The notes below the pieces were generated by a model. It had not been told where the DNA came from. It did not search any database and worked only from the letters and a program-made list of their open reading frames with translations. A program made the position numbers and the translations under genes. A stretch of DNA of 37,317 nucleotides from an uncultured bacterium (GTDB taxonomy: Bacteria; Hydrogenedentota; Hydrogenedentia; Hydrogenedentales; JAEUWI01), in the NCBI GenBank assembly GCA_963977445.1, contig CAXBPH010000036.1, positions 1 through 37,317 on the forward strand, written 5' to 3'. Positions 15,410 through 32,272 of the stretch are shown one piece after another; position 1 is the first letter of the stretch; each line of letters opens with the position of its first letter.

Positions 15410-15429
15410 AACTTCGGACGTCCGAAGTT
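15410..15429. repeat. Palindrome copy 1, AACTTCGGACGTCCGAAGTT
   Basis: Perfect 20-bp palindrome, 23 bp after the toxin stop. Confidence 0.95.
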
Positions 15430-15624
15430 GTTTATCCGGCGTGGGGGAGTACGCTCCATGATTTTCGGTACGGCCCACCCGACGCCCGTGTCTTTTGCGC
15501 TGAAGGGAAGCTTTGCGCGGTACGATGTGCCGAAGTAACGGATGATTCTCGTAGATGCCAAAAGACTCTCGAACGGGGCCTCCCAACCGAATTCTAAAAG
15601 CAATCACTCCGGTAGCAGCCATTC

Positions 15625-15650
15625 GAAAACTTCGGACGTCCGAAGTTTTC
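15625..15650. repeat. Palindrome copy 2, GAAAACTTCGGACGTCCGAAGTTTTC
   Basis: Perfect 26-bp palindrome. Confidence 0.95.
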
Positions 15651-16082
15651 TGATCGGAGTGGGGGAGATCCCCCGAGGCTTTTGTATGTCGGTGACAATC
15701 GGCGACCGCCTCCATAGTCATCGCTCGTCGGATTCAAGATACGTGTCAGCCGTTGTCTCTTGCACAATCTTCCGTATTGTTTGAGATTGGTTCCAGCAGG
15801 CGCAACCGCGATTTGCGAAGATCTTGGTCAGCCTCAAGTATTTGGGTTTGCGACGATCGATCCCAAAAGTTTTGCTGTCGTTGTGGGGCGCTGGCCAATA
15901 TCGTAACGCGAAGCTGTTTTCAACGTCGTTCGGTAGTCAATCGGTCACGGCACGAACCACGTTGACCGCCTGTGCATACGTCCTGGGAATTTACATGCAA
16001 TTGCTGTAGCGGAGCGGCAGAGCACTGCGGGTCCAGTGCCGCGGAGAGGCTAAAGTGGGGGATCAATACCGTCCTCTCGTCA

Positions 16083-16110
16083 ACGTCTGATAATCTATCT
16101 TATGTTGCTT
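16083..16110 (+). other. dif-like XerC/XerD recombination site
   Basis: ACGTCTGATAA-TCTATC-TTATGTTGCTT has the 11-6-11 layout with ATAA/TTAT inner inverted core and TTATGTT XerD arm (cf. E. coli GGTGCGCATAA-TGTATA-TTATGTTAAAT); AT-rich intergenic context. Confidence 0.5.
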
Positions 16111-16650
16111 TGTATACTAAAATAGTAGCTATATATTACATAGTTGACACCGCATGCCTTCGTCGTGCCCTTATTGCGGGTATCAAGTCCATTCTCATCG
16201 GTCTTCCAATGCCGTGTATGACGCAATCGGGATTAGATGGGGCTCCGTATGGCCTCGCAGCAGGAACGCGCCACAGCTGATTTTAGCACCCGGGGTGTTT
16301 CATCGTTTTTCAGTAACTCTCAAAGTATAGCAACCCTTGACCTGTCTCATCGTCTTTGCGCCTTGGATTACGCACGTTCCGTCTCATTCCGTGCCGGTTG
16401 CGGTTAGGCACCACCCGATGCCTTTTCGGAAGATTCAGTTTCCTGTCCATGTCGCGTCGACTTCGAATACCAGGTTGACTTTCCGGAGTGTTCTCCCGTG
16501 GTTTCCCTTTCTGGTTCACCCGCTGGCGCGTGCGGTCTGGTCTTCGCATCGTCAAGGACCTACCTGCTAGCGCACGTTCCTCCGTGACTTCGCCATAACC
16601 ACCCCGACTGGTGCAAGCCAGAATAGAAACCTCTCATAGGAGAAAACATC

Positions 16651-16887
16651 ATGGAAAAAAACAAACCAGCATACGAAATACGAATGGGCGTCATTAAGGC
16701 AACCATCTGGGCCAACCCATCCGAAAACGGCGTCTTTTACAGTGCCACCTTTACCCGGCTCTATAGAGACGGAGACGAATGGAAATTCTCGGATAGCTTT
16801 CGGCGGGATGACCTGCCCTTGATCGCCAAAGTAGCCGACAAGACTTTCGAGTGGATCTTGAATCCCGTCTTGGAACCACAGGAGTAA
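16651..16887 (+). CDS. Small conserved mobile-element protein, putative ssDNA-binding (PC4/SpoVG-like fold inferred)
   Basis: AGGAG RBS; IKATIWAN...TRLYRDGDEWKFSDSFRRDDLP; clear paralogue at 29705. Confidence 0.85.
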   Translation: MEKNKPAYEIRMGVIKATIWANPSENGVFYSATFTRLYRDGDEWKFSDSFRRDDLPLIAKVADKTFEWILNPVLEPQE

Positions 16888-17536
16888 TGCTCTTGCGAAA
16901 TCAGCCGGGCGGTCTCGTGCCGCTCGGCACATTCACCACGCAGCCATCGGTGGAGATGTTCATCCAATTGCTGGACAAGGGAAATCTAAAATGTTAAGGA
17001 GTAAATCATGGAATCGGATAAGAAAGAAAATCGGAAGCAACTCTTGCGCGATATTCTCATAAGTTTTGTTGTTGGAATGCTTCTGGCGGTTATCGCAGCG
17101 GCCTGGCGTTATCTCTAGGCCTGAAAAAAGAACCGCATCCCAAAGGATGCGGTTCAAAACCTTGAAAACAGTCTACAGAATTGACTGAATTAATCCGAGA
17201 CCGACCAGAAACCCAGCCAACCCGGAGATCAGTGCTACTTTCAACCGTTTCCATCGGGGGAAGCCCCCGTTTGACCCGTGATTGTGAACAACCACGTGTA
17301 ATGCACCATCGTATTCTCCCATTTTTTCCTCCTTTTCCACGTTAACAAACCGTAATTAGCTAACCTGAAAAGGCGACTGGGTGGATGGTGCAGCTGCCGT
17401 GTTTTGTCTCCTGGCAACAAGGGAGTTAAGGAACGGATTAAACTTTCCAACTAAGTTTAGTGTACCATAAAGTCTCGAAATTCCAACGAAAAATCTGTGG
17501 GTTGTCACCGTGTGACCAGCGTGATACCCAGGGGAC

Positions 17537-18382
17537 ATGTCACGTTCCACCCCGAAGCCCCGACCTCCGGAAACTCACCCTGCCACAGCAACTTCAACGC
17601 TGCCGCCGCTCCTGAAATGGCTGGGCGGTAAGCGCTGGCTCGTCCCCGAACTTGTCGCCCTCTATGCGGGCCACCGACATCGCCGCCTCGTCGAGCCCTT
17701 CTGCGGCGGCTTGGCCGTCGCCTTGGGGCTTTGCCCCGGCGAAGCCCTGTTGAACGACGCAAACCCGCACCTCGTCAACTTCTACACGTGGGTTCAGCGC
17801 GGCCTTGAAATGAAACTCGACCTAGCCAACGACGCAGCGACCTACTACTGCCATCGTGATCGTTTCAACCAACTTATCGCCGAAGGCGACGTGCGCTCGT
17901 GCGAGGCGGCGTCCCTGTTCTACTACCTCAATCGCACCGGTTTCAACGGCCTTTGTCGCTTTAATCGTAAGGGCACTTTCAACGTGCCCTTTGGTCGCTA
18001 TCACGGTATCCGTTATGCAAGCTCCTTTGAAACCCATCGCCGCGCGTTCGCGCCCTGGTGTTTCTCATCCAATGACTTTGGATTCCTGACCCTTAAGCCG
18101 GATGATTTCATTTATGCTGACCCGCCATACGATGCCGCCTTCACCCAATACAGCGCCGACGGATTTTCGTGGGACGATCAGGTGCGTCTCGCCCAATGGC
18201 TCGCGCGCCATCCCGGCCCGGTGGTGCTGTCCAATAACGACACAGATCGCGTGCGCTCCCTCTATCAGCATCTTGGCTTCCGTATCGTGTTGCTTCATGC
18301 CCCGCGACGGGTCAGCGCCAACGGCGACCGGACACCTGCCCGAGAATTGCTGGCGTTGAGAAATCTCGATGGCCGCGAGTGA
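17537..18382 (+). CDS. Orphan Dam-family (D12 class) N6-adenine DNA methyltransferase
   Basis: PLLKWLGGK, VEPFCGG (motif I), FYYLNRTGFNGLCRFN, YADPPY (motif IV); no adjacent endonuclease. Confidence 0.92.
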   Translation: MSRSTPKPRPPETHPATATSTLPPLLKWLGGKRWLVPELVALYAGHRHRRLVEPFCGGLAVALGLCPGEALLNDANPHLVNFYTWVQRGLEMKLDLANDAATYYCHRDRFNQLIAEGDVRSCEAASLFYYLNRTGFNGLCRFNRKGTFNVPFGRYHGIRYASSFETHRRAFAPWCFSSNDFGFLTLKPDDFIYADPPYDAAFTQYSADGFSWDDQVRLAQWLARHPGPVVLSNNDTDRVRSLYQHLGFRIVLLHAPRRVSANGDRTPARELLALRNLDGRE

Positions 18383-18401
18383 TTGTTGGCGTGCCCGGAG
18401 A

Positions 18402-18422
18402 GCTTCGGACCTCGGAAGTTTT
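18402..18422. repeat. Degenerate palindrome copy, GCTTCGGACCTCGGAAGTTTT
   Basis: 15/18 match to the core, between the convergent methylase and AbiEii 3' ends. Confidence 0.75.
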
Positions 18423-18447
18423 GTCCACCCTCCACTGTGCCTGAAGG

Positions 18448-19326
18448 TCACGTTAACGAGCGAGGACCGTCGCTTAAGTTTTCAAGGAACTCCCGAACGG
18501 TTCTTACAATTTCCGGCAGGTCTGGTGGCGCAGGTTGTCGTCGTTGGCGCTTGACAAACCCGGCCCATTGAAGGCGCTTCGACTCATTATTTGCGAACTC
18601 GTCCGTGAGGGCTAAAGGCGTTGACTCTGGAAGCGGTGTTTGCCGGCGGATAAAGGTGCTCCTGATCGCTTCACACAAGCTATTTTCATTCAAGGGGAAC
18701 GTCTGGCTCAACATCCAGATATCGAAGTAGTCCTTCATACGACTGTTGGCCATGCCGAGTAGAACCATGGCGTGGAATTTCTCCGCGATAACTGTTTCCG
18801 GTGAGTATGTAGCGATTATGGGGCCCCGTTCGGCCAACAGTGCTGGGAACTCTGCTTGCCTGGGCTCGGGGACAATGATGTCGCCAAAGCCCACATCCAC
18901 TTGAAGCCGGATTGGCATTACACCGAGATAGACCGGTACGACGACGCGCACGCCGTCATAGACCGAATCCTCCCGGATGGCGGAAGCAGCGACTTTTGTA
19001 CCATCAAATTCGAGACCATCGTCCTCCATCGTGACGGTACAAACGCTCCCAATCACTTCGGCAAGATGCTTCGGGTCGGGATTGCCGAAGCCCAAGAGAT
19101 CAAGGTCCATGGTTGTGCGTTTGTCATCGAGCCGCCATGCGACGTAGAGCATTGCCCCTTTCAGGACGAACTGATTTCGGTGTGGGCTCGTAGCCAGGCG
19201 GGCCAGGAATCGCTCCACCGCGTAGCGGAGAACAATAGCTTGAAAGTCCTCGCCCGTTGCCTTCGCCAGATTCAGGAGCCGTGCCCGAACCGAGGCGCTC
19301 ATGTTCTTACGTGAGGGATCTCTCAT
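18448..19326 (-). CDS. abiEii: AbiEii/AbiGii-family nucleotidyltransferase toxin (292 aa)
   Basis: True start MRDPSRKNMSASVRARLLN at the ATGA overlap with abiEi. Motifs FVLKGAML, RTTMDLDLLG, ETVIAEKFHAM, NSRMKDYFDI. Confidence 0.9.
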   Translation of the reverse strand: MRDPSRKNMSASVRARLLNLAKATGEDFQAIVLRYAVERFLARLATSPHRNQFVLKGAMLYVAWRLDDKRTTMDLDLLGFGNPDPKHLAEVIGSVCTVTMEDDGLEFDGTKVAASAIREDSVYDGVRVVVPVYLGVMPIRLQVDVGFGDIIVPEPRQAEFPALLAERGPIIATYSPETVIAEKFHAMVLLGMANSRMKDYFDIWMLSQTFPLNENSLCEAIRSTFIRRQTPLPESTPLALTDEFANNESKRLQWAGFVKRQRRQPAPPDLPEIVRTVREFLENLSDGPRSLT

Positions 19327-19928
19327 TCGACCAGCATTTCCAGGTAGGGTTGGATGATGCCCTGCACACGGCAGACGCTCGCCGCCGCCCAGAGTTCGTC
19401 CATGGTGAAACGTTTCGCGCGCCAGCCTTCGCGGAGCGCCTCGATGGCGACATCCAGGCCGATCTTGTTTCGATACTTGAAGCAGTCCGCAATCGTTCTG
19501 GCCGGGGTGTAGATGTGTACCGCCACGCCCTCGATCACGTGCTCCTCCATGCCATGCTCGAAATGGGGACCCGTGCAGTAGAGAAAACGAACACCCCCCT
19601 CGCTTGGTGGCATCTTTCGGTCTCGCCGCATCATCCAGGTTTCGTGGGGCATCTGCGTGCCGATGCCATGAAATACGAGCGCCGAGATGACACAAATCAC
19701 GCCGCCGGGATAGCGGCGGGTGGCCTCTACAAAAGTGTGGTTCACGCTCAGCTCTCCATCGGGCAGTCCATAGAGTCCCCGTCCGGGCTGGACAAGCTGT
19801 CCGCTCCGAACCATGCGCTGGAGCGTGGATCTCGGATCCCGCGCATCGCGGATGTCCCGCGCGCGAAAGACGGATTGACGCCGTGCGGTTCTCAGTATCT
19901 TGTCGGCAATGTGCTCCATAGAGGGCAT
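19323..19928 (-). CDS. abiEi: AbiEi-family type IV TA antitoxin / transcriptional regulator
   Basis: LQRMVRSGQLVQPGRGLY, ISALVFHGIGTQMP, YTPARTIADCFKYRNKIGLDVAIEALR. Start uncertain (19919, 19928 or 19937). Confidence 0.9.
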   Translation of the reverse strand: MPSMEHIADKILRTARRQSVFRARDIRDARDPRSTLQRMVRSGQLVQPGRGLYGLPDGELSVNHTFVEATRRYPGGVICVISALVFHGIGTQMPHETWMMRRDRKMPPSEGGVRFLYCTGPHFEHGMEEHVIEGVAVHIYTPARTIADCFKYRNKIGLDVAIEALREGWRAKRFTMDELWAAASVCRVQGIIQPYLEMLVE

Positions 19929-19961
19929 ACTCTCCAAAGAATAAAGTTATTACTATTCTCC

Positions 19962-19991
19962 AATATGAGCCAACTCGATGGGAAATGTCAA
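19962..19991 (-). promoter_or_regulatory. sigma70 promoter of the abiEi-abiEii operon
   Basis: Minus strand TTGACA-N18-CATATT. Confidence 0.55.
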
Positions 19992-20012
19992 GGCCGGGAT
20001 TTGCCATGACAG

Positions 20013-20032
20013 AACTTCGGACGTCCGAAGTT
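20013..20032. repeat. Palindrome copy 3, AACTTCGGACGTCCGAAGTT
   Basis: Perfect 20-bp palindrome between the abiE promoter and the esterase stop. Confidence 0.95.
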
Positions 20033-20049
20033 TTGCAGGAGTCCAGGGG

Positions 20050-21033
20050 TTACTCTTCCGAAAGGCGTGATACAGCCGCCCCAGTGCGGGTCAGGGGTGC
20101 AAAAAAGTCCCAGAGGGCTTCGCTGGCGCTGAAATCATGAGAGGTCTTTCCCACGATGACCTCGGGGATGCTGCTGCGGCCTCCAGGCCAGGTGTGGCCA
20201 CCTTCCTGCACCGTGTAGAGCACGACCGGCGTGTTCGCTGGACAGGAATAGGTCAAAATCGTGCTGGTGGTGCCATCGCGGACACTATCCTCAATCGGAA
20301 CCTCGCTGCCCTCGGTGCTGCAGTCATCGCGCGTACGCCAGTAGTCGACCGATTCGTCTACCGGTAGCAGAGCGAGAGGCGGGCCGGGCCCGGCAAAAAC
20401 TTCGCCACCTTCCCAGGGGAGGATCGGGTCCGCCGTGCCGTGGATGAGCAGCAACGGAATATGTAGCGCCGACGTGCATCGCTCCTGGATCTCCCGGGGC
20501 ATCGTGGCACCCATGACCACGGCGGCTCCCGCGAAACGATCTCCGGCTTCGCACATCAGACGATAGGTCATGGAGGCCCCGTTCGATGCACCGGCGAGAA
20601 AGACCCGAGTTTCATCGATGGCGTAGTTTTCCGAGATCCTATCCACAAGCACAAGAATAAACTTCACATCATTGGGCTCGTCTGATTTATACCCGTAGTT
20701 CCAGCTGCGGCGGAGGCCGTCAGGATAGGCCACAATGAAACCTTCGGTATCGGCCACCACATTCAACCCCGTCATGGTCTCCATGCTGCGACCACTGCCC
20801 GTGAACGGATGCAGGGCAAGCACGAGTGGCCATTCCGTATCCGGTGAATACGTGGGCGGCACGTGAAGGCGGTAGCTGCGCTCTGTGCCGTCGACGTCAA
20901 TGGAATTGCCGCAGCCTGTACAGCAGACCAGCAGAGTAACGGCAAGCAGATAAATGGCGCGGTTGACGTATACAATCCAACTTCTCCGCTGGAGACGGCA
21001 ACGGGCCCTTGTTTTCTTCGTGTGTGAACCCAT
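20050..21033 (-). CDS. PHB-depolymerase/LpqC-like alpha/beta-hydrolase esterase, probable lipoprotein (327 aa)
   Basis: ATG at 21033 with AGGAGG RBS; LLVCCTGC lipobox-like; GASNG nucleophile, IHGTADP, GGHTWPG. Confidence 0.88.
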   Translation of the reverse strand: MGSHTKKTRARCRLQRRSWIVYVNRAIYLLAVTLLVCCTGCGNSIDVDGTERSYRLHVPPTYSPDTEWPLVLALHPFTGSGRSMETMTGLNVVADTEGFIVAYPDGLRRSWNYGYKSDEPNDVKFILVLVDRISENYAIDETRVFLAGASNGASMTYRLMCEAGDRFAGAAVVMGATMPREIQERCTSALHIPLLLIHGTADPILPWEGGEVFAGPGPPLALLPVDESVDYWRTRDDCSTEGSEVPIEDSVRDGTTSTILTYSCPANTPVVLYTVQEGGHTWPGGRSSIPEVIVGKTSHDFSASEALWDFFAPLTRTGAAVSRLSEE

Positions 21034-21166
21034 ATGCCCTCCTATGCACCCGTCTGTGACAGCTACGGACGTTGTAGCCTTGATTATGGACGGCATGATT
21101 CGCGGTATCAAGATCGATTTCCGACATAGTCATTCCCTATATCGCGCGCCAGGCGTGCCGTCCCGG

Positions 21167-21184
21167 ACTTCGGACGTCCGAAGT
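21167..21184. repeat. Palindrome copy 4, ACTTCGGACGTCCGAAGT
   Basis: Perfect 18-bp palindrome upstream of the esterase. Confidence 0.95.
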
Positions 21185-21262
21185 TTTGGACGATACCCCT
21201 CGACAAGAAAAGTACCGTGTGCGATATTCTGGGCCTGCTAACAACCCTTCTGAGGTACCTCC

Positions 21263-21469
21263 ATGAACCCAACTCCAGCACAACTCGCCTACATCGCTAC
21301 TATGCTTTTCCAGCTTGACTTGGGTCTCGCCGAGGGCTTGCGGCTGGCCCGGGCCCGGTCGGCGATCGATAGTCTCTGGATGCTACAACCTGGTGAAGCT
21401 TTCCGCCTGATGCATGCTCTGGAACAGGAGAAGCGCCGTCGGAGTTATCCACAGCTTCACCTGAACTGA
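21263..21469 (+). CDS. Small hypothetical protein (68 aa), possibly nucleic-acid binding
   Basis: GAGGT RBS; PTPAQLAYIATML...EAFRLMHAL resembles the short helical T-x-x-Q-x-x-Y-I motif of phage/plasmid proteins. Confidence 0.6.
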   Translation: MNPTPAQLAYIATMLFQLDLGLAEGLRLARARSAIDSLWMLQPGEAFRLMHALEQEKRRRSYPQLHLN

Positions 21470-21495
21470 CGAACCCCGCAAAGGTCCCAGATCGA

Positions 21496-22365
21496 CCGGG
21501 CTTTTAGCCCGGCAGTGTCTATGGCGCGCGCGGACGGTGAAGAGATCACCGTCCGCCACGCGTGGTACACCCCACGCGACCCCTCCTCGGTGCGGGCCTT
21601 CGGCCCGGCCTTGTTGCCGCTCGCGTCTCGCGATTCCCGACCCTTGGTCAGGACATCGCTCGATCGCTCGCACAACCGATCACTTCAAGCCGCTGGCTTG
21701 GCGTGGTCTGTCAGTGCCCCGCAGCCCCGCCCCGAATAAGACCAAGGTCGCACGCTTCGCGTGCGTAGTCTATATGGCTCGCCAGCTCGCGATTCCCGAC
21801 CGTTGGCCAGGATATCGCTCGCCCGCTCTCCTCGCCTCCAGCCCCGGAACTCCGCGCGCGCCCCTCCCTCCGTTCCGGCACCTCCGGCATGTACCCCGCC
21901 GCTTCCACCACCATACCCGCCCAGTCCTCGCCCCACCGGCTGCGCGAACGCGCCGCCGCCTTTTCTTCGGACGCACGCTTTGCGTGCGCCTGGTCTATGG
22001 GTCGAACCCGGCTCGGATTTCCGCCTTGCGGAACTTCCTCATCCGGGTTCTCACCGAGCTCTCGGCATTCCCGACCCTTCGCCCTGGTCAGGACATGCTG
22101 TCGACTCGGCCCCGACCCCGAGGCCTCGCTTATTCCGCGCCCGGAAGTTGCTCAGCCTCTTTCACTGGCAGCCACGCCCTGGGAGCGAGGCGCGCGCCAG
22201 CGTCGCTGTCACGCCCCTCGCCCGTTCCCAGGCCGCCCCCATGCCGGGCTCCTGAACGGAGCCTCCGCGCTGAACGCGCGGTTGTCGCCTCGCGATTGGG
22301 CGCGAGGGCTCCCGGCCCTGAACGGGCCTGCGCTCGCTGGGCTGCTCGCGCCTGCGCTGAACGCT
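21496..22365 (-). other. Array of repeated hairpins (structured ssDNA or ncRNA) upstream of the relaxase-like gene
   Basis: Three units of hairpin + GTCTAT(AT)GG + conserved 36-39-nt hairpin, and three different stems sharing a TGAAC loop (see findings). Confidence 0.65.
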
Positions 22366-22534
22366 CCGGCCCCTTTCGCCCTACGTCTTCTTCGCGCTCA
22401 AACTGGCGGTCCACAGCACACTTAAGCGACCGCCCAGTCAGGGGTTAGACACAGCCCAACAACCATCTTCCAATCCCCTCTAAAGGTGGTGTACACTTGG
22501 GTCGAGGCTTGGGTGAGGGTCAGGCTGTGGGCTC

Positions 22535-23179
22535 ATGCTGACCATCTCTTCACGAGACGACGAAATCCTCGATTCACTGACCTTGCGTGTGCGCTTGCTC
22601 ACGCTGGACCAGGTCGCACGCTGCTGGTGGTCCGACGTAAAGTCGGCCAGGCAGTTGGCCCTTAACCGTCTGCGCGAACTCGAATTGGCGGACAAAGTCC
22701 ACCTCTTGGACTTGCCCGCTCACCCCGAACTCTCGCTCACGGAACCCGAGGCGATCTGGAAGCCGAAGGCCCCTGTCCCAAACTTTCACCAGCTCAGCTA
22801 CCGCCTTTCCAGCCGGTGGAAGCAGCCTCCAATCCTCCACCTGGGGGTCATCGCTTCCCGCGCTTCCGGGCGTCACTACGGTGGCTGGGGCGGGCGCAAA
22901 CCCCGCCCGACAGAGCGCACCCACGACCTCCATATGGGCACGGTGTTCCTTCTGAAGCGGGCCCGGGATCCGGAATCGGTAATTCACTGGATGTCCGAGG
23001 AGAAGGTCCGCGAGTGGCAGCGGCAGCGTCGGAGCGACGGCACCCATCACGTGCCCGATGCCATCGTGAAGCGGCCCAGACGAACCGCCATCGAGTTTGG
23101 GGGCTCCTATCCCGCAGACAAGCTGTCCACCTTCCATGACTACTGCGTGACGCAGGGGTGGCCTTACGAAATATGGTAG
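22535..23179 (+). CDS. Replication-relaxation (Replic_Relax / MOBC-like, PD-(D/E)xK fold) putative relaxase
   Basis: N-terminal wHTH (RDDEILDSL..VRLLTLDQVAR..ALNRLREL), then THDL, VPDAIV, AIEFGGSY..KL; first gene of an operon with a coupling ATPase. Confidence 0.7.
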   Translation: MLTISSRDDEILDSLTLRVRLLTLDQVARCWWSDVKSARQLALNRLRELELADKVHLLDLPAHPELSLTEPEAIWKPKAPVPNFHQLSYRLSSRWKQPPILHLGVIASRASGRHYGGWGGRKPRPTERTHDLHMGTVFLLKRARDPESVIHWMSEEKVREWQRQRRSDGTHHVPDAIVKRPRRTAIEFGGSYPADKLSTFHDYCVTQGWPYEIW

Positions 23180-23877
23180 AGCGGGACGATACAATCGATC
23201 TGAGGGCCCTGATCCTCGAACATATTGGGCGCTATCGCATCTCCTTCCTACCCGTGATGGAGCGTGTCTTCGCTGGGCTCGGCGACGTGAAGGGAACGGT
23301 CCAGAAACTCCAGAAAGCTGGTCTAATCACCGCCCTGGGACGGACGGCGGGCTACGGAAGCATCTTCGGCGGCTACACCGCATACCAGACCACGGCGAAG
23401 GGCGCCAAGCAGGCCGGCTTCACGGTGAAACGCGCAAAGAAGCTCGAAGAGAACGCACTGGAGATTTCCTTTCGGATCCTCTGGCTCTGCTGCATGGGTA
23501 AGCCACGCTACCGTCGTCTGGAGGAAAGGCACCTCGTGCAATTGTTCGGCCATCCCCTCAAGTCGAAAAATGGCTACTACTGCATGGAGATGAAAGGAGA
23601 ACGCCGGGTCTACCGCATCCGCCTGATCGGTCAGGAATCGGACGACGAATACGCGCTCCGTGAAACCCGAAAGGATCTCGTCGAATGCGGCGAGTTACCC
23701 ATACTGAAGGAATTCTGTCAGCACGCTCGCTACGGAAACCTGCTGGTGGTCAGCAAGCCGGAGCGGCGGCGGCGGCTCGAAGAACGGGTGAACAAGCAGG
23801 GTCTGAAGCAATTAGGACACGTTCGGGTGGCGCAGGTACCCGACCTCGCCGAGATAGGAGGAGCCTTCCGTGATTGA
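23173..23877 (+). CDS. wHTH hypothetical protein, possible relaxosome accessory factor (234 aa)
   Basis: ATG overlaps the upstream stop and the 3' end overlaps the next gene; ILEHIGRYR...VQKLQKAGLI...YQTTAKG wHTH pattern. Confidence 0.75.
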   Translation: MVERDDTIDLRALILEHIGRYRISFLPVMERVFAGLGDVKGTVQKLQKAGLITALGRTAGYGSIFGGYTAYQTTAKGAKQAGFTVKRAKKLEENALEISFRILWLCCMGKPRYRRLEERHLVQLFGHPLKSKNGYYCMEMKGERRVYRIRLIGQESDDEYALRETRKDLVECGELPILKEFCQHARYGNLLVVSKPERRRRLEERVNKQGLKQLGHVRVAQVPDLAEIGGAFRD

Positions 23878-26845
23878 TGATCTTTTTAACGTTGGTTCCT
23901 ATGCCGCCAAGGCGTTGCGGCGCAGCGTCCTTCGGTATACCCGTCGGCCCGTCGAGTATAATTTTAAACGCCTTCCCGAGCCCGAACACTACCGCGACAT
24001 GGAACTTGCCTTTCGCGAAGACTACTTCGATCCGCCGCCCTTTTCCTTCAAGCACATGTTCCCCTACTTTAAATACGCGTCCCTTTTGCTGCTTTTTTTG
24101 ATGGGGTACAACGCCTTCGGCCTGAGTATTGTCCTTGCAATATCTAGTCTCGTGGTTCTGGCGCTGCCAAATATTTTTATTGGGCGCAGCTTCATGCTCT
24201 TGTTCCGCTCTCAAGTCCAATTATCGCTTGCCATTTTCTTTGTTATCCTGGTCGGCCTGGCCTACATCGCCACCGATTCCATGGAATATAGCGCGCTGGC
24301 GGTATTCGCAGTTGGCGCCCCGATGCTCTTTGTCCTGAAACGCGTCACCTACGATTTCATGGCCTTTTGCGTCCTGTGGCTTCACACGCACCCTTGCCTA
24401 ACGAACAAGGAACGCCAGGATAGTCGTGAAACACTGTATCCGGCGTTCAGCCTACTTTTGCCTGAGATTGTCGTCGTCGTCCTCGCACTGGGCCCAGCAT
24501 ACTCGTCTTTCCTGGCGCTAACCGCTGTGTACGCGATCCTCCTCGCCAGCTTGATCTTTGGGCCACTGCAGAAAATTTTTCGCGAGCAAACACAGATAAC
24601 GTGGTACAGGTTCGCCAGCACGACGACCGAGCTTCTTGTAGAGTATTTTACCTACGGCAGAAGGTTCTCTCGCCCCTTGCCCGGTGTCTTCGTTTACCCA
24701 CGAGGATATCACGTGCGGCGCCGGTACGCTGTCCTGCTGCTCATCCTGACGCTATTCACCTTTTCCGCCGGTACCAGCTTCTTCTTTGCATGGGACACGC
24801 CAGGTTTTCGTGGCCAGTATGTCGCCATGTTCAGTGAGACCATCTATGCGGATCCGAATGCGTGGAACGGGATGAAAGAAGAAATGCCCCTTCTCGACTG
24901 GTCCAAGGCACCAGATCAAGGTGAACGCGAAAGGATGCAGCAGCGTCTGGATAATCTGCGCGAGGCGCGCGATGACGCAACATCAGACGACAGAATCGCG
25001 ATTGGCATCGAAGTGGAGAAGTTGAGCAGACAAGTGCCTGCCGGTGGGCCCGAACTCGACCATATCGCCAATGCTTGGTACGGGCGCGCCACCACGGCGT
25101 GGATGAAGATGGCCTTGCGCAATGTGCGAACACACCCTGTTACCGTTTCTGCAAGCTTTCTCTTGGCCATCGCTCATGCCCTCCTGCTTCCCGCGCTCTT
25201 CTTCCTTGCCACCCTGCAACATCAATTACTCGCGATTGGGTTACTACGAGAAAAGCTTGTAGCCCGCGTCGCCACGGAAACTACGTGCAGCCCATGGGAG
25301 TGGTTCGTGGAGCGACTCAGGAATTCGCGCCACGCGGCACCCGACCCGCTCAACGCCGATTCCGCCATCCGCGAAGCAGATCACCTCTTTCTTGGTCTGG
25401 AGGCCGAAAACGGATTTCCCGTTCTGTTACATCGTGATATCGTCGCGGACCACGTCTACATAACCGGGGGTACCGGCACGGGCAAAACTTCGCTCGGCAT
25501 TCTCTCGCTGTTGGTCCAACTGATCCGCGCCGGCTCGACGGACCCCGACGAATCCGAAGGCGGCACGCCGCCCATCGTCATTATTGATCTCAAGGGTGAC
25601 TACGCCCTGCTGCACACAGTGCGCGAGGAGGTGCGAAAGAAAGCAGAACAGGAAGGACGGAATTTCGAGGACTGCTTCCGCCTCTTCACCTCCGAGAAGG
25701 GTATGCCCACCCACTACTTCAACCCGCTCGGGGACATGAGCCACCCGGATCGTTACGTGGCGGATCTCGCCAATCTGCTGCTGGATGCGCTGGAACTCAA
25801 CCACGGCCCGGGCTATGGCCGCTCGTTTTACAGCCGCAAGAATTACATGCTCCTGCACGAAGTCCTGAAGGCCAATGACCCGGCGACTATCGATGAGTTA
25901 TGCAAGCGCATCTCCAAGAATACCCTACGCAACAAAGATGATCGGCATCAGGCATTTGAACTCGTGGCCACCCTTTACGGGCTCACGGAGTTCACGCAAC
26001 TCATGCCGCCCCCTAACATCCCCGAATCCGATACCATTTCCATGCGCACGGTGATCGAGGAACGGCAGGTCGTATACTTCTGGCTTCCCACGGTGGAAAG
26101 CAGCATCGTTGCGCGTGAGATCGCCAATCTTGCCCTTTTCTCGTACTTCTCGGCCATGCGGGCCCGGGCGAAGACGCGTGTGCCGCTGCGCCAGGCCTAT
26201 CTGGTCGTGGATGAGTTTCAGAAACTTGCCGGCGACCGTTTTAGCGTCATCCTGGAGCAGGCTCGAGGATTCGGGCTTTCGGCGATCCTGTCAAACCAGT
26301 CTATCTCTGACCTGAAAACCCCCTCTTTCGACTTGCGTTCCACCGTGTTTCAGAACACGCGCCTCAAGCTCTATTTTTCCTTTGCCGACTGCCGCGAAAT
26401 GGCCGATTTCGCCAAACGTTCCGGCGATGAGTTGGCCTATATGCGTTCCGGCATTTATAACCTTGCCGGGGACGAGCAACCCGACGCGCCACTATTTGAC
26501 CGGTGGTCGCACGCCATCAAGCCTCGCGTTACCACCAACGATATGCTCAGCGTTACGGATCACCCACTCCAGGCCTACATGGACGTCCGTTCCGGCAGCG
26601 GCTACACCCAGTTTGGCGGCGCTACGATTCCATTGCAGATGTTTCATCCGGTTCGATGGTCGGACTTTCAGGAGCGACGCGATACCTTGTCCTGGCCTAC
26701 GTTGGAAGAGTTGGGGATCACAAGATCGGTATGCGCCGCCGTATCGCCAGAGGAGGTGGATGAACGGGCCGTTGCGCAGATCGCGCGGCTCGACGAGCGC
26801 ATCCAGGCGTTTGATGACGAGCATCCGCAGTTTCGTTTTTCATAA
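23870..26845 (+). CDS. Polytopic membrane VirD4/TraD-like type IV coupling ATPase (991 aa)
   Basis: AGGAG RBS and GTG start; roughly 8-9 hydrophobic segments; Walker A GGTGTGKT, IIDLKGD, Walker B LVVDEFQ, EQARGFGLSAILSNQSISDL. Confidence 0.88.
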   Translation: MIDDLFNVGSYAAKALRRSVLRYTRRPVEYNFKRLPEPEHYRDMELAFREDYFDPPPFSFKHMFPYFKYASLLLLFLMGYNAFGLSIVLAISSLVVLALPNIFIGRSFMLLFRSQVQLSLAIFFVILVGLAYIATDSMEYSALAVFAVGAPMLFVLKRVTYDFMAFCVLWLHTHPCLTNKERQDSRETLYPAFSLLLPEIVVVVLALGPAYSSFLALTAVYAILLASLIFGPLQKIFREQTQITWYRFASTTTELLVEYFTYGRRFSRPLPGVFVYPRGYHVRRRYAVLLLILTLFTFSAGTSFFFAWDTPGFRGQYVAMFSETIYADPNAWNGMKEEMPLLDWSKAPDQGERERMQQRLDNLREARDDATSDDRIAIGIEVEKLSRQVPAGGPELDHIANAWYGRATTAWMKMALRNVRTHPVTVSASFLLAIAHALLLPALFFLATLQHQLLAIGLLREKLVARVATETTCSPWEWFVERLRNSRHAAPDPLNADSAIREADHLFLGLEAENGFPVLLHRDIVADHVYITGGTGTGKTSLGILSLLVQLIRAGSTDPDESEGGTPPIVIIDLKGDYALLHTVREEVRKKAEQEGRNFEDCFRLFTSEKGMPTHYFNPLGDMSHPDRYVADLANLLLDALELNHGPGYGRSFYSRKNYMLLHEVLKANDPATIDELCKRISKNTLRNKDDRHQAFELVATLYGLTEFTQLMPPPNIPESDTISMRTVIEERQVVYFWLPTVESSIVAREIANLALFSYFSAMRARAKTRVPLRQAYLVVDEFQKLAGDRFSVILEQARGFGLSAILSNQSISDLKTPSFDLRSTVFQNTRLKLYFSFADCREMADFAKRSGDELAYMRSGIYNLAGDEQPDAPLFDRWSHAIKPRVTTNDMLSVTDHPLQAYMDVRSGSGYTQFGGATIPLQMFHPVRWSDFQERRDTLSWPTLEELGITRSVCAAVSPEEVDERAVAQIARLDERIQAFDDEHPQFRFS

Positions 26846-26928
26846 CAAAGCCCGATGGCGGGCTTAGGGTACGGTGCGGCATACCGCTGCACGTGCAATG
26901 TATCTAAAACACATGCAAGGAGCGATTC

Positions 26929-28068
26929 ATGAAACATAGTGTATTCATTCTGGCGGGAGTGTTGCTCCCCGGACTCGCCGGCTTGGTGGCGGGCTGTTCC
27001 CAGGGCACCGGTGCCAACGGCACAAGCGACTTGGATAAAATCACGAGTGCCCGCGAGTCGAACCAATTACAGGAAGACCTCGCCCTTGCGACGAGCAGGT
27101 ATAGCGAACTTCTAGAAAAGGGAAGCCGCACCCAGACGGCGCTTGACGAGTTACGCCGGTTGCATACCCAATGGAATACCGAGGTTATGGCGTTACTTCA
27201 AAGTGAGGACGGACGTTTCTTGGCCGCTGACGAAGCCGACGTCAAGGCCTTCCGCGCTCATGTCGAATCCATGAACCCCGTCTCGGAAGACACCATCGGC
27301 AACCTCTCAACTTCACTCAATACCCTGATCGCTCCCGTTAAAACTGCGATGACGGAAGGTTCAGTAGCTGGTATGCCTAATCCCGAACTTGTCACCCGGT
27401 TAGCCGACCTCGACGTGAGAATACAAGATTCGCTGTTACCCTACGAAAGCGCCGTTTCCGCGATACAGGCCCTGGCGGCCACGGCCAAGAGCCGTGGTAC
27501 GCGTGGTATGCAAACATTGCAGCAAGAGGTTGACGTTCTCAAAAGTGCCGAGGCTGCGGCACGCGCCGCAAAGATAGAGTCCGCACGCCTGGAGGCCGAA
27601 GAGGAAGTGACGCAGCAGCTTGCTAAGGCTGAGCAGGACTTGGTCCGGGTACAAGGGGAAAAAAAGCGACAGGAGTTGGAATCCCAGGCTCATGAACTCC
27701 GTGCGCAAGCAGAGGCCGACGCCATCAAGGCCCGGGCCACCAATTCGGATACCATCAAACGCCTCGCGCCTTTCGTGAAGAAGACCAAGGTCATTTTTGA
27801 ATGTTACAGCCCGAGCAATTGCCGATGGATACCGGGACAGACGCTGGCGGCACCGCTATCTTTCGGAGCCCTTACACGGCTTGGTGCCTTGGAACCAACG
27901 CAGCTTGGATTTGAACAGCTCCAATCGGTCGCGACATCCTATGAAAATGACCGTCCAAAGTGGGGCTCTGCCGACACCCCGGAAGATTGGGAACGGGTCA
28001 AGGACAATCAGAAACTGCTTCGAGAGCTAGGACCCACACTCGTGGAACTGGGCCATCTGGCACCTTGA
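26929..28068 (+). CDS. Coiled-coil lipoprotein, hypothetical (379 aa)
   Basis: AAGGAG RBS; signal peptide ending LVAG-C (lipobox); long A/E/Q/K-rich helical stretches. Confidence 0.85.
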   Translation: MKHSVFILAGVLLPGLAGLVAGCSQGTGANGTSDLDKITSARESNQLQEDLALATSRYSELLEKGSRTQTALDELRRLHTQWNTEVMALLQSEDGRFLAADEADVKAFRAHVESMNPVSEDTIGNLSTSLNTLIAPVKTAMTEGSVAGMPNPELVTRLADLDVRIQDSLLPYESAVSAIQALAATAKSRGTRGMQTLQQEVDVLKSAEAAARAAKIESARLEAEEEVTQQLAKAEQDLVRVQGEKKRQELESQAHELRAQAEADAIKARATNSDTIKRLAPFVKKTKVIFECYSPSNCRWIPGQTLAAPLSFGALTRLGALEPTQLGFEQLQSVATSYENDRPKWGSADTPEDWERVKDNQKLLRELGPTLVELGHLAP

Positions 28069-28401
28069 CCAGGTGCACGGGCCGCCTACCGAGGCTCCTG
28101 CGTCGCCTCCGAAAGCGTCAGCGCTCATAACCCGGCTTCCGATGGGCCTGCGGCCCAACCGAATCCCACGAAGACCCTCGGACTCGGAACCGATCCGGTA
28201 GCATGAGGGCGTGCGCACCCACCGTCCCTGGACGCCGTGCGTCGGGCCCGTGCCGGGGTGAGACCCGACGACGACGTCCGAAGACGGTAGGAACGGGTCC
28301 TCGATGTCTGTGAGCACAGATCAGCCGTGAATCGTTTACGGCACAAGGGGCAATCACCGCAGGAACGCAGTCTCCATCAATCGGGTTCACCGCTGTGAGA
28401 T

Positions 28402-28419
28402 ACTTCGGACGTCCGAAGT
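28402..28419. repeat. Palindrome copy 5, ACTTCGGACGTCCGAAGT
   Basis: Perfect 18-bp palindrome between the transfer cluster and the DUF932-like gene. Confidence 0.95.
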
Positions 28420-28653: not shown

Positions 28654-29679
28654 ATGCAAACGTTAACACGGGCTCATGACGAGCTCTACCGGCGTACGCC
28701 AGACGAACAGTTCCCCAACTTGGACGCATTGGTGCAGCATTGTCAGACGCAAAAGGAAGCGTCGCAAGAGCAGTGGCACGCACCCCATACCATTCGTCCG
28801 GAATCGACGGGCGGAGAACTTACTCTTCGCCTGGATCAGGAAGGCGTATACGGCCTGAATGATTGGAGTTTCACCCAGGTATGCGGACTGGCCAAGGTCA
28901 GCAAGGATACGGTGAACAAACTTCGGCCCCAAACGGCCGATGCCGTGCTCGCGGAGACCCTCCCGAGCGGCACGCGGCCCATCCAGACGCTGATTCAGGG
29001 CGATCAGGTTCGTTCTATTCATGGTGCCAGCTATACGCGACTCTACAACGCGGATCTGCTCGGCGTCGTGAACGAATTCGCCTCCCATTTCAGCGCGCCT
29101 CAGGAGGCTGTTGGCGGTGCCAGTGGGCTCTATTGCGGGGAGCAGGACATGTTTTGCTTCCTCATCGACCCCACGGGCTGGGCGGAAATCGACGGTGAGG
29201 CCTTCGCCCCCGGATTCTTCTTGTGGAATTCGGAGGTGGGCAAACGCTCTATCGGTATCCAGACCTTTTGGTTTCAGGCCATCTGCCGGAATCACATCGT
29301 TTGGGATGCGGTCGAAGTCGTTGAATTCACCCGCAATCATACGGCACGGGTTTACGAATCTCTCGATGGCATACGGCGGATCATAGAGAATTTGGTCTAC
29401 AAGGTCGACGCCCGGCGGGATGGATTCATCCACGTCATTGAGAAGGCTATGCGGAAACGCTTGGGTTCTGATGCCGAGGAGGTGCTTAAGGCCCTACACA
29501 AGCACGGTATCCCCCGCAACCTGGCCCAGGAGGCCATGAAAATGGCCAAGGCCCAAGGAGAGTTTACCCTCTTCGCCCTCATTGATGCCCTTACCCGGAT
29601 GGCTGGAAAAATTCCAAACGCCGGGGACCGCATCGAACTGGACACCAAGGCGGCAGGCCTTTTGGCCCTCGCTGCGTAA
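28654..29679 (+). CDS. DUF932-like phage/plasmid protein (341 aa)
   Basis: ATG at 28654 with AAGGAG RBS; RSIHGASYTRLYNADL, GFFLWNSEVGKRS, FQAICRNHIVW, FTRNH. Confidence 0.78.
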   Translation: MQTLTRAHDELYRRTPDEQFPNLDALVQHCQTQKEASQEQWHAPHTIRPESTGGELTLRLDQEGVYGLNDWSFTQVCGLAKVSKDTVNKLRPQTADAVLAETLPSGTRPIQTLIQGDQVRSIHGASYTRLYNADLLGVVNEFASHFSAPQEAVGGASGLYCGEQDMFCFLIDPTGWAEIDGEAFAPGFFLWNSEVGKRSIGIQTFWFQAICRNHIVWDAVEVVEFTRNHTARVYESLDGIRRIIENLVYKVDARRDGFIHVIEKAMRKRLGSDAEEVLKALHKHGIPRNLAQEAMKMAKAQGEFTLFALIDALTRMAGKIPNAGDRIELDTKAAGLLALAA

Positions 29680-30142: not shown

Positions 30143-32272
30143 CTATTCCCGCTGGAATCCAGCAGGGCGGCCAATTCCAAATGCGATATCCTTAACCGGC
30201 GCTGGCCGGTCCTCATTCTCTACATAGCGCCACAGTTCGATTCCCTGGGAGCTACTTCCCGCTGCCATGAAAAGGGCATTGGCTGCGGGCGCCAAAACTT
30301 CGAATCGAATCTCCTCGTAGGGCACCTCCACAATATCCCGCACCATGACGGTTCCCGCCTCCGTTCCGTCACAGCGCCAGAGCTCTTCGCCGTGAATTCC
30401 GTCGTCCGCGAGGAAATAGAGCGCTCCCTGGAACACGACGAGGTTGCGTGGCGTGCTGGATGCCGCGCCCTTGGCAATATCCCGGAGCAATCCCGCCGGC
30501 CGACCGGGTCTGGCAACCCACAATTCGAGGCCGGTTCCATCGCTTTGTGCACAGAAAAAAAGCGTGCTTTCCAGCGCAGTGAGGTTCTGTGGGTTTGCCG
30601 CATCCAGGCTGACGATTACGGTACCCTCGTCTGAGCCATCGGTCTGCCACAGGCGGAAGCCGTTGGCCCCGTCTTCTGCTGTGAAATACAGGAGCGATTC
30701 GGCGGGCGTCAATTCGTCCGGGGAACTGCCCGCACGGCCCGGAAAAACGTCTTTCACGAGCCGTGTTCCAGTTCCCTTACCGTCCGACACCCACAGCTCC
30801 GCGCCGTGGGCAATGTCGTTGGCCACGAAATAGAGGAGATTCCCGGCCGGCGTCAGTTGTTGGGGCGATGATGAGGGGTTGACGTTGCCGTCGGTGTAGA
30901 TATCCGCCAGGAGCCGCGCCTGCCCGTCCCCATCGGCGCACCAAAGCTCGCGCCCATGCACCGGATCGGTGGCCGCGAAAATCACGAGATTGCCAATGGC
31001 AACGGTGTAATACGGCGAAGAACTTTTTTCACCGGGGTAGATGTCGCGGACCAGTGTTGCGTGTTCCCCGCTGGCGTCGGCCATGTAGATCTCTTCACCC
31101 AAACCATCACCGAGCGCGCTAAAAAAGACACCATGACCTGGAAGTGCACATAGCGCATAAGGGTCCGACCCTTCCACCCCAGGGCGAATGTCACCGACCG
31201 CGCTGGCGGTTTCGTACGGGGGGCCGACGGACCACAGTTCTTTACCAATATCCAGACCTTTCGCCGCAAAGAAAACCCGGTAGCCTAGAACGACGAAAGC
31301 GCTGGGACTCCCGCTGTCCCGACCCGGCCATAGGTCCGTGACCATTCGTGTGCCAGGGCCGGTTCCGTCGGTAATCCAAAGTTCCCGGCCGTGCACGCCA
31401 TCGTCTGCAACAAATACGATCTGCGGGGCCCTATCGGGAAAGCTGATGACCGTAAATAGAGTTGGGGCGCTCTCTAAGGGACCGGCGGCGATATCGTGTA
31501 CCATAAATGTGTGCTCTGCCGTCCCCCCGGACACAAACAACTCCTCGCCATTCATATTGTCGGAGCTGCGAAAGATCAATCGATTGGCGTCGATTTCGGT
31601 TATATCTCTTGCGTGCGTTGTGAGCTGATCTATTTCCGTAACCATTCGCCCTTCCGCGTCACATCGAGCGAGGATTGGACCACGAATTGGATGCTGCCCG
31701 GCGAAGTAGAAAAACCCGCGCTGGATCACACCGGCATAGTCGGCACCGATTGGGCCCTGCCATTCCGTTGTCATCGGAAGTGGCTGCGTTCCTTCCTCAG
31801 TGCCATCGGTCTGCCAGAATGCGGGCGTGCCGCTCACTACCCGAATGAACGCTTTCCCGCTATCCCAGACCCCGCATACGCCATCAAATCCTTCCTTGAT
31901 GTCCCCGTTAAACTGCTTGACGCGCCGGGTGCCTTCCGCCGTACCATCCGTTTTCCAGAGTTCGCTGCCCCCACCCGCAGGATCGACCCGGAACAGCAAG
32001 AGTTCGCCAAAATTGGAAAGCTTGCTGATTTCGGTACTTTCCGGTCCTGGGGTGATATCCGCGACCAACGCCACAGTCCCTTGAGCGTCTGATCGCCAGA
32101 TCTCCCGGCCATGAATTCCATCATCCGCGGTGAAATACACAAAATCCCGTAAGACATGAAGGTCCTGAGGATTGGATGAAGGCGGCGAGTAACTTTCCTC
32201 AGCAAAAGCCCCTGGTGCAAAGACCAACGTAGCGGCTCCAAGTAGATACGGAAACAAGCAACAATACCTCAT
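30143..32272 (-). CDS. Secreted ELWxxDGT-repeat beta-propeller protein (709 aa)
   Basis: Signal peptide; many ELWKTDGT / ELWITDGT / ELWRCDGT repeats; ATGA overlap with the kinase stop. Confidence 0.93.
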   Translation of the reverse strand: MRYCCLFPYLLGAATLVFAPGAFAEESYSPPSSNPQDLHVLRDFVYFTADDGIHGREIWRSDAQGTVALVADITPGPESTEISKLSNFGELLLFRVDPAGGGSELWKTDGTAEGTRRVKQFNGDIKEGFDGVCGVWDSGKAFIRVVSGTPAFWQTDGTEEGTQPLPMTTEWQGPIGADYAGVIQRGFFYFAGQHPIRGPILARCDAEGRMVTEIDQLTTHARDITEIDANRLIFRSSDNMNGEELFVSGGTAEHTFMVHDIAAGPLESAPTLFTVISFPDRAPQIVFVADDGVHGRELWITDGTGPGTRMVTDLWPGRDSGSPSAFVVLGYRVFFAAKGLDIGKELWSVGPPYETASAVGDIRPGVEGSDPYALCALPGHGVFFSALGDGLGEEIYMADASGEHATLVRDIYPGEKSSSPYYTVAIGNLVIFAATDPVHGRELWCADGDGQARLLADIYTDGNVNPSSSPQQLTPAGNLLYFVANDIAHGAELWVSDGKGTGTRLVKDVFPGRAGSSPDELTPAESLLYFTAEDGANGFRLWQTDGSDEGTVIVSLDAANPQNLTALESTLFFCAQSDGTGLELWVARPGRPAGLLRDIAKGAASSTPRNLVVFQGALYFLADDGIHGEELWRCDGTEAGTVMVRDIVEVPYEEIRFEVLAPAANALFMAAGSSSQGIELWRYVENEDRPAPVKDIAFGIGRPAGFQRE

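Follow-up and report, generated by a model that had tools for sequence, protein, structure and literature searches.

Type Ia ParABS partition systems combine a ParB protein, which has ParB_N and HTH_ParB domains and a GHRRLRAA-type box, with an adjacent ParA and a palindrome of 16-20 bp, and a site may also lie within parB itself. The sites of ParB usually have the form of a perfect palindrome of 18-20 bp, and in Bacillus subtilis the spo0J gene carries an embedded parS site. Here, we analyse a perfect 18-bp palindrome, ACTTCGGACGTCCGAAGT, that recurs in a stretch of 37,317 nt from an uncultured bacterium of the Hydrogenedentota (contig CAXBPH010000036.1). This stretch, called the window below, is the entire contig C36 of a 7.1-Mb assembly in 464 contigs, and the genome is labelled G000. 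We think it most probable that the palindrome is a parS-type docking site for the ParB of a large mobile element, which is encoded on another contig (C261) of the same assembly, and that ParA, ParB and parS together would segregate this replicon. ParABS is a known kind of system; the unusual part is that the sites are strictly intergenic, stand at the borders of gene modules and have exact cargo swaps between them.

Further systems bear comparison with this locus. The IncP-1 plasmid RK2 carries 12 OB sites, the operators of KorB. A pdif site, as in the modules of Acinetobacter plasmids, is 28 bp long and consists of two different 11-bp arms and an asymmetric 6-bp spacer, on which XerC and XerD act. 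According to PMC11790492, the distance from the 16-bp OB to the target promoter downstream of it is 4-10 bp in some cases and 45 to >1,000 bp in others, and KorB reaches these promoters as a sliding cytidine triphosphate (CTP) clamp that is locked by KorA. BisD of ICEclc, as PMC12409273 describes it, is a ParB-like CTP clamp that controls transfer genes over a distance. By description alone our element is similar to this, since a ParB-family clamp is found on a conjugative element, but BisD is presented as an activator and belongs to an integrative element. For the plasmids IncC and IncA, PMC10954446 states that the plasmid ParB binds parS copies and that the copies on SGI1 can hijack partition.

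Copies of the palindrome in the window and in the genus

A pattern search of the window returned five exact copies of ACTTCGGACGTCCGAAGT and one degenerate copy with three mismatches (Table 1). At up to three mismatches there is no other match in the window, and the chance level, taken from 100 shuffles of the window, is a mean of 0.01. According to gene calls by a codon-usage scorer that was trained on the G000 genome, all six copies are intergenic. An earlier, sequence-only reading of this DNA had listed the same five perfect copies and the same degenerate one, had placed all of them between genes and had seen no full copy outside 15.4-28.4 kb, and on each of these points we agree with it. 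It had also proposed that consecutive copies bracket modules. This is indeed what we find for the abiEi-abiEii pair, for the esterase gene and for the block made up of a small open reading frame (ORF), a hairpin array and a gene for a protein like type IV coupling proteins (T4CP).

Two smaller proposals of that reading had to be given up. What it called "partial sites" (21965 and 28273) are half-sites that stand alone and differ from the full site at 6 and 7 positions, and isolated 7-mer half-sites occur at about chance frequency (7 in the window, about 4.6 expected by simple arithmetic). The T tracts next to some copies had been taken as a sign of polarity, which turned out to be a small-sample effect. 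Across 34 exact sites from the genus the flanks are symmetric: A is found at position -1 in 28 of them and T at position +1 in 31, while AA on the left and TT on the right are each found in 17. Because the pooled flanks are symmetric, we take the true unit to be a 20-bp palindrome, (A)ACTTCGGACGTCCGAAGT(T), with A/T-rich shoulders.

Doublets that resemble copies 1 and 2 are also found in G2C429, G6C422 and G008. The site orthologous to the degenerate copy is likewise degenerate in three relatives (1, 2 and 4 mismatches), and both genes beside copy 5 have homologs on the element of the related genome G004. A GTGGGGGAG box that stands beside several sites was considered as the site of a second protein and rejected, as it is the 5' arm of ordinary terminator-like hairpins.

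In the whole 7.1 Mb of G000 there are six exact copies, five in the window and the sixth at C84:70, and only ten copies if up to three mismatches are allowed. The exact 18-mer is present in five of the eight other genomes of the genus (4, 5, 7, 8 and 1 copies), always clustered on few contigs; G003, G005 and G007 have no exact copy and the closed chromosome of G008 has one. Among the 60 related genomes in all, none of the 52 that were searched outside the genus contains it.

The same 339 kb of genus DNA that holds the 34 exact copies also holds eight one-mismatch and three two-mismatch copies. Between genomes, the DNA around the exact copies is only 67-86% identical and the 18-mer is unchanged. 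The changes in the degenerate copies fall mostly at positions 1, 9/10 and 17/18 and are uncompensated, and the CTTCGGA core of the half-site stays nearly intact. Changes of this uncompensated, core-sparing type therefore match a dimeric protein that reads the sequence, and not selection for a hairpin.

A ParB protein that accompanies the palindrome

The mobile element is present in five of the nine genomes of this Hydrogenedentota genus. In G004, the homologs of the window genes (13.6-29.7 kb) are found on a single contig of 83.5 kb (G4C26), together with a further AbiE pair, ArdC, helicases, a deaminase-domain protein and a ParA-ParB pair that is preceded by genes of 72 and 643 aa. The palindromes of this contig, four exact and four with one mismatch, are spread over 2.6-79.3 kb. 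In G000 the ParA-ParB module is located on C261 and is 84-90% identical to that of G004 (90% for ParA); the ParB encoded there has 273 aa.

The ParB ortholog of G004 contains the ParB_N (E = 2.4e-13) and HTH_ParB (E = 7.8e-9) domains. The boxes EDPxNERK, GHRRLRAA and SNVQRED, which we take to be the CTP-clamp (CTPase) boxes, are invariant or nearly so in nine ParB sequences. Among the PDB matches the closest solved relatives are Spo0J/ParB clamps (1vz0, 4umk and 6t1f, best E = 1.6e-23), and KorB follows with E = 1.4e-10. A Walker-type ParA is encoded directly upstream of parB on G4C26 (with AAA_31, CbiA and ParA matches), on C261, in L049/L095 and in L105. The best match among the 72,556 sequenced plasmids of PLSDB is only 31% identical to the element ParB.

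Those features of a type Ia ParABS system that can be tested here, that is, the ParB_N and helix-turn-helix (HTH) domains of ParB, an adjacent Walker-type ParA and an associated palindrome on the same replicon, are all present. The differences concern the sites: their sequence is not the canonical TGTTNCACGTGAAACA, which is absent from the G000 assembly, and they are spread over at least 70 kb instead of being clustered near parAB, strictly between genes save for a copy inside parB. We note in passing that a chromosomal-type ParAB is present on contig C32 of G000. Because the canonical chromosomal parS TGTTNCACGTGNAACA nevertheless does not occur in the 7.1-Mb assembly, the host's own parS may be non-canonical.

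The genomes in which the element-type ParB (86-100% identity) was found, G000, G001, G002, G004 and G006, are those that have 4-8 exact copies of the palindrome, whereas G003, G005, G007 and G008 have only a chromosomal ParB that is about 30% identical. Multi-copy sites and element-type ParB are thus found together in 5/5 versus 0/4 genomes of the genus, and this is the outcome of the check on co-occurrence with a parB clade that had been suggested before. Furthermore, ParA, ParB and palindromes share one contig both in G004 and in L105.

Since co-occurrence within a genus could reflect the presence or absence of the element as a whole, we compared more distant relatives of the ParB, which extend into other phyla and down to about 40% identity. 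In the 71% ortholog that G062 encodes, parB itself contains a palindrome, whose codon position is the one seen in G000 and G004. An exact copy is found at that parB codon position also in G064, where the ortholog is partial (45%) and adjoins a T4CP-like gene. Three paralogs at 46-49% are encoded by G061; one of them (49%) comes after ParA and has two exact copies upstream of it, and AGTTCGGATATCCGAACT and ACTTCAGACGCCTGAAGT accompany the others.

A larger sample comes from 46 metagenome loci (289 kb) that encode relatives of the ParB at 38-100% identity. They contain 28 perfect 18-bp palindromes; 20 shuffles gave 1.55 (at most 4), and the host genome has 2.2 in the same length of sequence. The design is shared, with paired symmetric substitutions, by 26 of the 28, and 19 of the 46 loci have at least one palindrome. 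We were not able to find any such palindrome in 12 control loci of the chromosomal-type ParB (42 kb). A copy lies inside parB in 13 of the 46 metagenome loci and in four genome loci, and the other position that recurs is about 1.45-1.5 kb upstream of parB. The half-site changes together with the HTH of the ParB: TTCGG is found with GKRExWVSD, TTGGG with GKDxxWVSG, TTGAG with WVSH and TTGCG with WVSR.

Another DNA-binding protein of the element, for example the 72-aa product, the 630-aa product or AbiEi, could instead use the palindrome as its operator and act as a global regulator. The genes of the first two precede parA-parB in every locus seen, so that their co-occurrence with the sites is as good as that of ParB; winged-helix HTH_36, RepA_N or RP-C domains are found in the atlas neighbours of the 630-aa protein, a putative replication initiator (a lead only), and copy 3 lies just upstream of abiEi. 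We nevertheless consider such an operator improbable, given that the variants of the site track the HTH residues of ParB, that the copy embedded in parB recurs in the loci counted above, and that AbiE pairs are missing from most of the loci that bear sites. The perfect palindrome of 18-20 bp is, moreover, what is usual for ParB.

With the palindrome as a parS-type site, dimers of ParB would bind each copy, the bound ParB would close into a CTP clamp, and the partition complexes formed in this way would be segregated by ParA. The sequence-only reading had offered a parS-like centromere or global operator as one of its hypotheses. Its parS-like part is supported by the ParB on C261, by the common contig in G004 and L105 and by the covarying palindromes; the window itself contains no ParB.

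Several points weigh against this assignment. Its support is wholly comparative, and in G000 itself ParB and the sites of the window are on separate contigs, which are linked only through the relatives. At the level of the genus, any gene of the element would be expected to co-occur with the sites, and related genomes are not independent of one another; the covariation of HTH and site partly runs along subclades and may reflect shared descent. The idea that the copy inside parB is kept in all orthologs proved to be false, for it is found in only 2/5 orthologs of the genus, though it recurs in distant relatives. There are also sites that have no matching protein: G008 has one exact copy and one copy with a single mismatch but no element-type ParB, and only a ParB of about 32% identity was seen in G063, where a single contig of 6.7 kb has three exact copies, and in G065 (one copy), two metagenome-assembled genomes (MAGs) that may be incomplete. 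Conversely, 27 of the 46 metagenome loci, many of which are only 1-3 kb long, are devoid of a palindrome of the family. Because the exact 18-mer also occurs in unrelated repeats (see below), it is the context and not the 18-mer alone that identifies a ParB site. A conserved flank of copy 4, which is found beside a palindrome in five further loci, is separated from the palindrome by a variable spacing of 10-14 nt, and because of this variation a fixed contact with RNA polymerase is disfavoured. Finally, we recognised neither a KorA-like partner nor a second operator, though no dedicated search for them was made.

The two copies of G008 form an orphan doublet in its closed chromosome of 7.9 Mb (C1:5076577 and about 193 bp further on; positions 10078 and 10271 of locus L018), and one flank of the doublet is homologous to the flank of a site in G002. 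It may be what is left of a piece of the element that had integrated, or else a mimic of parS. The IncC/IncA-SGI1 case provides one possible reading of these orphan copies, but the site and the ParB clade are different.

If the palindrome is the parS of this ParB, a binding site is assigned to an uncharacterised ParB clade on the mobile elements of uncultured phyla (Hydrogenedentota, MAGs labelled Verrucomicrobiota, and others). The clade would then be a natural series of symmetric site variants that are paired with HTH variants, and thus provide material for studying how the specificity of ParB for parS and plasmid incompatibility evolve. Furthermore, three contigs of a fragmented MAG (C36, C84 and C261) would be linked into one plasmid-like element that carries BREX, AbiE, ArdC, the Dam methylase and the T4CP-like gene.

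A possible second role in transcription

KorB and its OB sites are a described system with a similar layout: there, too, a ParB-family CTP clamp has a ParA-type partner, and a short palindrome is repeated across a conjugative replicon, with some copies near the promoters of transfer or maintenance genes (in our element, near promoter-like sequences). In the window, copies 3 and 4 lie 22 and 15 bp upstream of promoter-like hexamers (predicted -35 boxes) that lead into abiEi and into the operon of the small ORF, the hairpin array and the T4CP-like gene, respectively (Table 1). Because the sites are spread over the whole element, are strictly intergenic and have these two copies so close to promoter-like hexamers, ParB might, by a second role of this kind, silence or insulate neighbouring transcription units, including the transfer operon and the defence cargo. 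We hold this only tentatively and with somewhat more doubt than conviction. The promoters are predicted ones, and promoter-like matches are not more frequent in the region than expected by chance (8, as compared to 6.6 +/- 2.5 in shuffles). In sequence, the element ParB is nearer to Spo0J/ParB than to KorB, the site is unrelated to OB, and the ParB of G004 gave no match to the KorB-specific Pfam domain. In summary, the layout is alike, but the features of KorB and KorA that can be tested were not found.

Exchange of cargo between the sites

The DNA on the two sides of a site assorts independently between genomes, and one of the flanks (H01) faces at least four different partners. For example, homology between the window and contig G1C529 extends on each side as far as the palindrome (19322-20036 and 21167-21608), and between the palindromes G1C529 has two unrelated genes in place of the esterase gene. 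In G004 a two-gene module of 2.9 kb is located between two palindromes, and G002 and G006 have about 300 nt in that place. We also counted where the alignments between genomes end. Among 137 internal ends of high-scoring segment pairs, which are not independent of each other, 31 lie at most 30 nt from a palindrome, as compared to 15.2 expected for random intergenic positions, and the other 106 lie elsewhere.

Similar observations would be made if the palindromes were the crossover sites of a pdif-like or integron-like site-specific recombination that shuffles the cargo, with the co-occurrence of ParB being incidental. The independent flanks, the clean swap of the esterase, the module in G004 and the excess of alignment ends at palindromes all speak for it, and there is a likeness to pdif and attC systems in that cargo, toxin-antitoxin genes among it, is bracketed by one short site and varies between the same flanks. 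Even so, this explanation seems unlikely to us. No recombinase, be it an integrase or a Xer protein, was found among the 45 of the 46 called genes that were scanned on G4C26, despite the eight exact or one-mismatch copies on this contig, and the only integrase seen at all (on C84) is 24 kb away from the nearest site and stands beside BREX. The site itself is a perfect palindrome of 18-20 bp and by its form does not have the XerC-spacer-XerD architecture; the folded form of attC is absent as well. Because the palindrome is perfect and there is no asymmetric spacer, directional recombination is not possible. Furthermore, the sites covary with ParB, distant relatives of the ParB keep one or two sites at fixed positions in or near parAB without any array of cassettes, and more than three quarters of the alignment ends are away from palindromes.

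A cassette system had been among the hypotheses of the earlier reading as well. The part of it that stands is that cargo breakpoints coincide with the palindrome in at least two places; most of the breaks in synteny lie elsewhere, and no recombinase was found among the 45 scanned genes of G4C26. Exchange of cargo at the sites may be a by-product of the parS-type sites and at best secondary, for example if crossover takes place at the only stretches that are identical between diverged elements. In a stronger form of this idea, the docking sites of ParB are placed as borders of modules, the clamp silences or insulates newly acquired cargo, and the 20-bp sites double as crossover points between related plasmids. 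We regard this as a rather doubtful proposal. If it were true, a partition system would also organise the exchange of cassettes without a dedicated recombinase, the cargo being defence genes, the esterase and giant surface-protein genes, and the KorB idea of a partition protein that is a genome-wide regulator would extend to the management of cargo.

Terminators and host repeats

All 34 exact sites of the genus are intergenic: 11 lie between divergent gene starts, 7 between convergent gene ends and 11 between tandem genes, and 5 are found at contig ends. Because of this mixed placement, a function as terminator only, or as promoter operator only, does not fit. Conceivably, the palindromes could do no more than separate transcription units, as intrinsic terminators or insulators for both directions, and be identical only because they spread with the modules, as hairpins of -11 to -21.6 kcal/mol are predicted for the RNA of either strand, 18 of the 34 have at least one gene 3' end as a neighbour, and the shoulders are A/T-rich. 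We think this very unlikely, since none of the five perfect copies in the window passes a terminator scan (at least 5 T in 8 bases), their U tracts being only 2-4 long, and since separate terminator-like hairpins adjoin copies 1 and 2. The sites between divergent starts speak against it too, as does conservation: loop and stem are identical while the flanks diverge, and the variants are uncompensated, whereas a terminator would tolerate compensatory change. The copy inside parB and the symmetric variants beside the ParB paralogs would be left unexplained. A comparison with Rfam gave no match for the window or C84 at gathering thresholds; in relaxed mode there was one match at chance level (E = 0.2).

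That the palindrome is a site that organises the host terminus or dif region, as had been proposed before, or an ordinary repetitive extragenic palindromic (REP) or bacterial interspersed mosaic element (BIME) repeat, is suggested by its form and by REP-like repeats of Anaeromyxobacter and Hymenobacteraceae that contain the same 18-mer, but can practically be dismissed, because such repeats have tens to hundreds of chromosomal copies and G000 has nothing like this uniform abundance, because the palindrome is missing from three genomes of the genus and occurs once in the closed G008 chromosome, and because the copies travel with mobile DNA on which there are genes for conjugation, anti-restriction, defence and partition.

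When all species-representative genomes were scanned for the 18-mer, 45 stretches were returned, many of which are in Hydrogenedentota MAGs. By our own arithmetic about 9 exact matches are expected by chance in 596 Gb, and the remaining singletons are roughly of that number. In MAGs of Anaeromyxobacter (L022-L024, L031, L038, L040, L042, L053 and L055) the 18-mer forms the centre of longer, host-specific palindromes between housekeeping genes, of the form ...TCCTTCGCA-18mer-TGCGAAAGG..., and in a Hymenobacteraceae MAG (L033, L037) it is found in tandem arrays with a spacing of 42 bp. Both look like REP-like families, whose core is the same by convergence or for some other reason. Mis-binned contigs were considered as a source of the matches in other phyla and rejected, as the GC content of the loci (40-75%) fits the labelled hosts and not the 56% of the window. 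These matches and the singletons are unrelated uses of the 18-mer or chance. In the literature, with the search confined to one text collection, the palindrome was not found as an 18-, 16- or 14-mer.

The mobile element

We read the element as what appears to be a large conjugative replicon, plasmid-like and at least 70-80 kb long. In G000 it would be split over at least three contigs, C36, C84 and C261. Circularity is not supported, since there is no terminal overlap in the two contigs of 83.5 kb. The sixth exact copy stands on C84, and behind it come a non-coding region that is conserved, the gene for ArdC, a BREX system with a complete set of genes, and a tyrosine integrase. The backbone is seen in one piece in L105, where the order is ArdC, the conserved non-coding region, a palindrome, a 640-aa gene, ParA, ParB with a palindrome inside, the F02-F09 module directly downstream of parB, and another palindrome, after which come further genes, a palindrome and the small ORF. 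Most of the backbone proteins, including the 630/640-aa, 72-aa, F02, F03 and 68-aa products, gave no match in Pfam, NCBIfam or PADLOC.

ArdC, the BREX set and the genes that accompany it occupy C84:1893-24736. The BREX set is type-1-like and consists of BrxA, BrxB, a 1,213-aa gene that we assume to be BrxC, a PglX-like methylase, PglZ and BrxL; with it there are a GmrSD-type nuclease, a UvrD-like helicase and the tyrosine integrase. Giant or surface-type proteins are encoded at several places. The neighbour of parB on C261 is a 1,590-aa PKD/Ig-like surface protein, and a giant gene of 6,464 aa (G004:C26:24825-44219) is located on the same DNA as the backbone genes.

About 850 nt at C84:88-950 (L064), beside a single-copy "class 1" palindrome, are conserved at the nucleotide level in eight genomes or contigs and contain no long ORF (relatives in Table 1). 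RNAalifold predicts 152 pairs for its first 470 nt, and of these pairs 31 are kept through changes on both sides; the region gave no match to an Rfam family. In L105 it sits between ArdC and the operon of the rep-like gene, parA and parB. We consider it a candidate for a large structured RNA or, alternatively, for a structured DNA of the oriV or oriT type.

Genes and other features of the window

Table 1. Positions of the palindrome copies, genes and other features (in the window, unless a locus is named)
Feature	Position	Strand	Remarks
F02-F09 two-gene module, 329 + 257 aa	13627..15386	+	F09 has a weak, sub-threshold AbiEii match (E = 0.001)
Copy 1, perfect	15411..15428		24 nt past the stop of the F02-F09 pair
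Terminator-like hairpin after copy 1	15440-15460		includes the GTGGGGGAG box
Copy 2, perfect	15629..15646		24-bp palindrome if AAA/TTT shoulders are counted; doublet with copy 1, 218 bp apart
Terminator-like hairpin after copy 2	15660-15675		
Dam-family N6-adenine DNA methyltransferase	17537..18382	+	element backbone in 4 relatives
Degenerate copy, 3 mismatches	18402..18419		between the convergent Dam methylase and abiEii genes
abiEii (18448-19302) and abiEi (19323-19919)	18448..19919	-	toxin-antitoxin/abortive-infection pair between the degenerate copy and copy 3
Promoter-like TTGACA-18-CATATT	19991-19962	-	leads into abiEi
Copy 3, perfect	20014..20031		18 nt past the esterase stop
Polyhydroxybutyrate (PHB)-depolymerase-family esterase	20050..21033	-	cargo cassette between copies 3 and 4
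Copy 4, perfect	21167..21184		in a divergent region
Promoter-like TCGACA-17-GATATT	21200-21228	+	leads into the small ORF/hairpin array/T4CP-like operon
Backbone block	21263..28068	+	68-aa ORF, hairpin array, 214-aa and 234-aa genes, coupling ATPase, 379-aa gene
Non-coding hairpin array	~21470-22450		G+C 62-65%, many short hairpins, no gene by the codon scorer
TraG/VirD4-like coupling ATPase, 991 aa	23870-26845	+	
Copy 5, perfect	28402..28419		between the 379-aa gene (26929-28068) and a 341/380-aa gene (28654-29679)
Relatives of the C84:88-950 region	L008 10030+, L010 2670+, L013 925+, L017 10098+, L026 1708+, L105 3900-4372 (-), L030 (-)		

The non-coding hairpin array, which is placed between the small ORF and the T4CP-like operon, is 86% identical in G004 and G002, which is above the identity of its coding neighbours. 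It holds a unit of about 118 nt that is repeated three times in G004, at 94-95% identity. It is a candidate for an oriT or for a single-strand promoter region.

We were not able to find a paralog or a second copy of the esterase in the G000 genome. Between 15650 and 17530 there are 1.9 kb with nearly no coding signal, where the scorer made a single call of 78 aa. The segment upstream of the Dam methylase (16546-17537) is 72-75% conserved in four relatives. Towards the ends of the window, a giant gene of more than 3,819 aa on the minus strand (1-11461) is cut by the end of the contig, and a protein with ELWxxDGT repeats and a Ser/Thr kinase are encoded next to each other (30143-34353).

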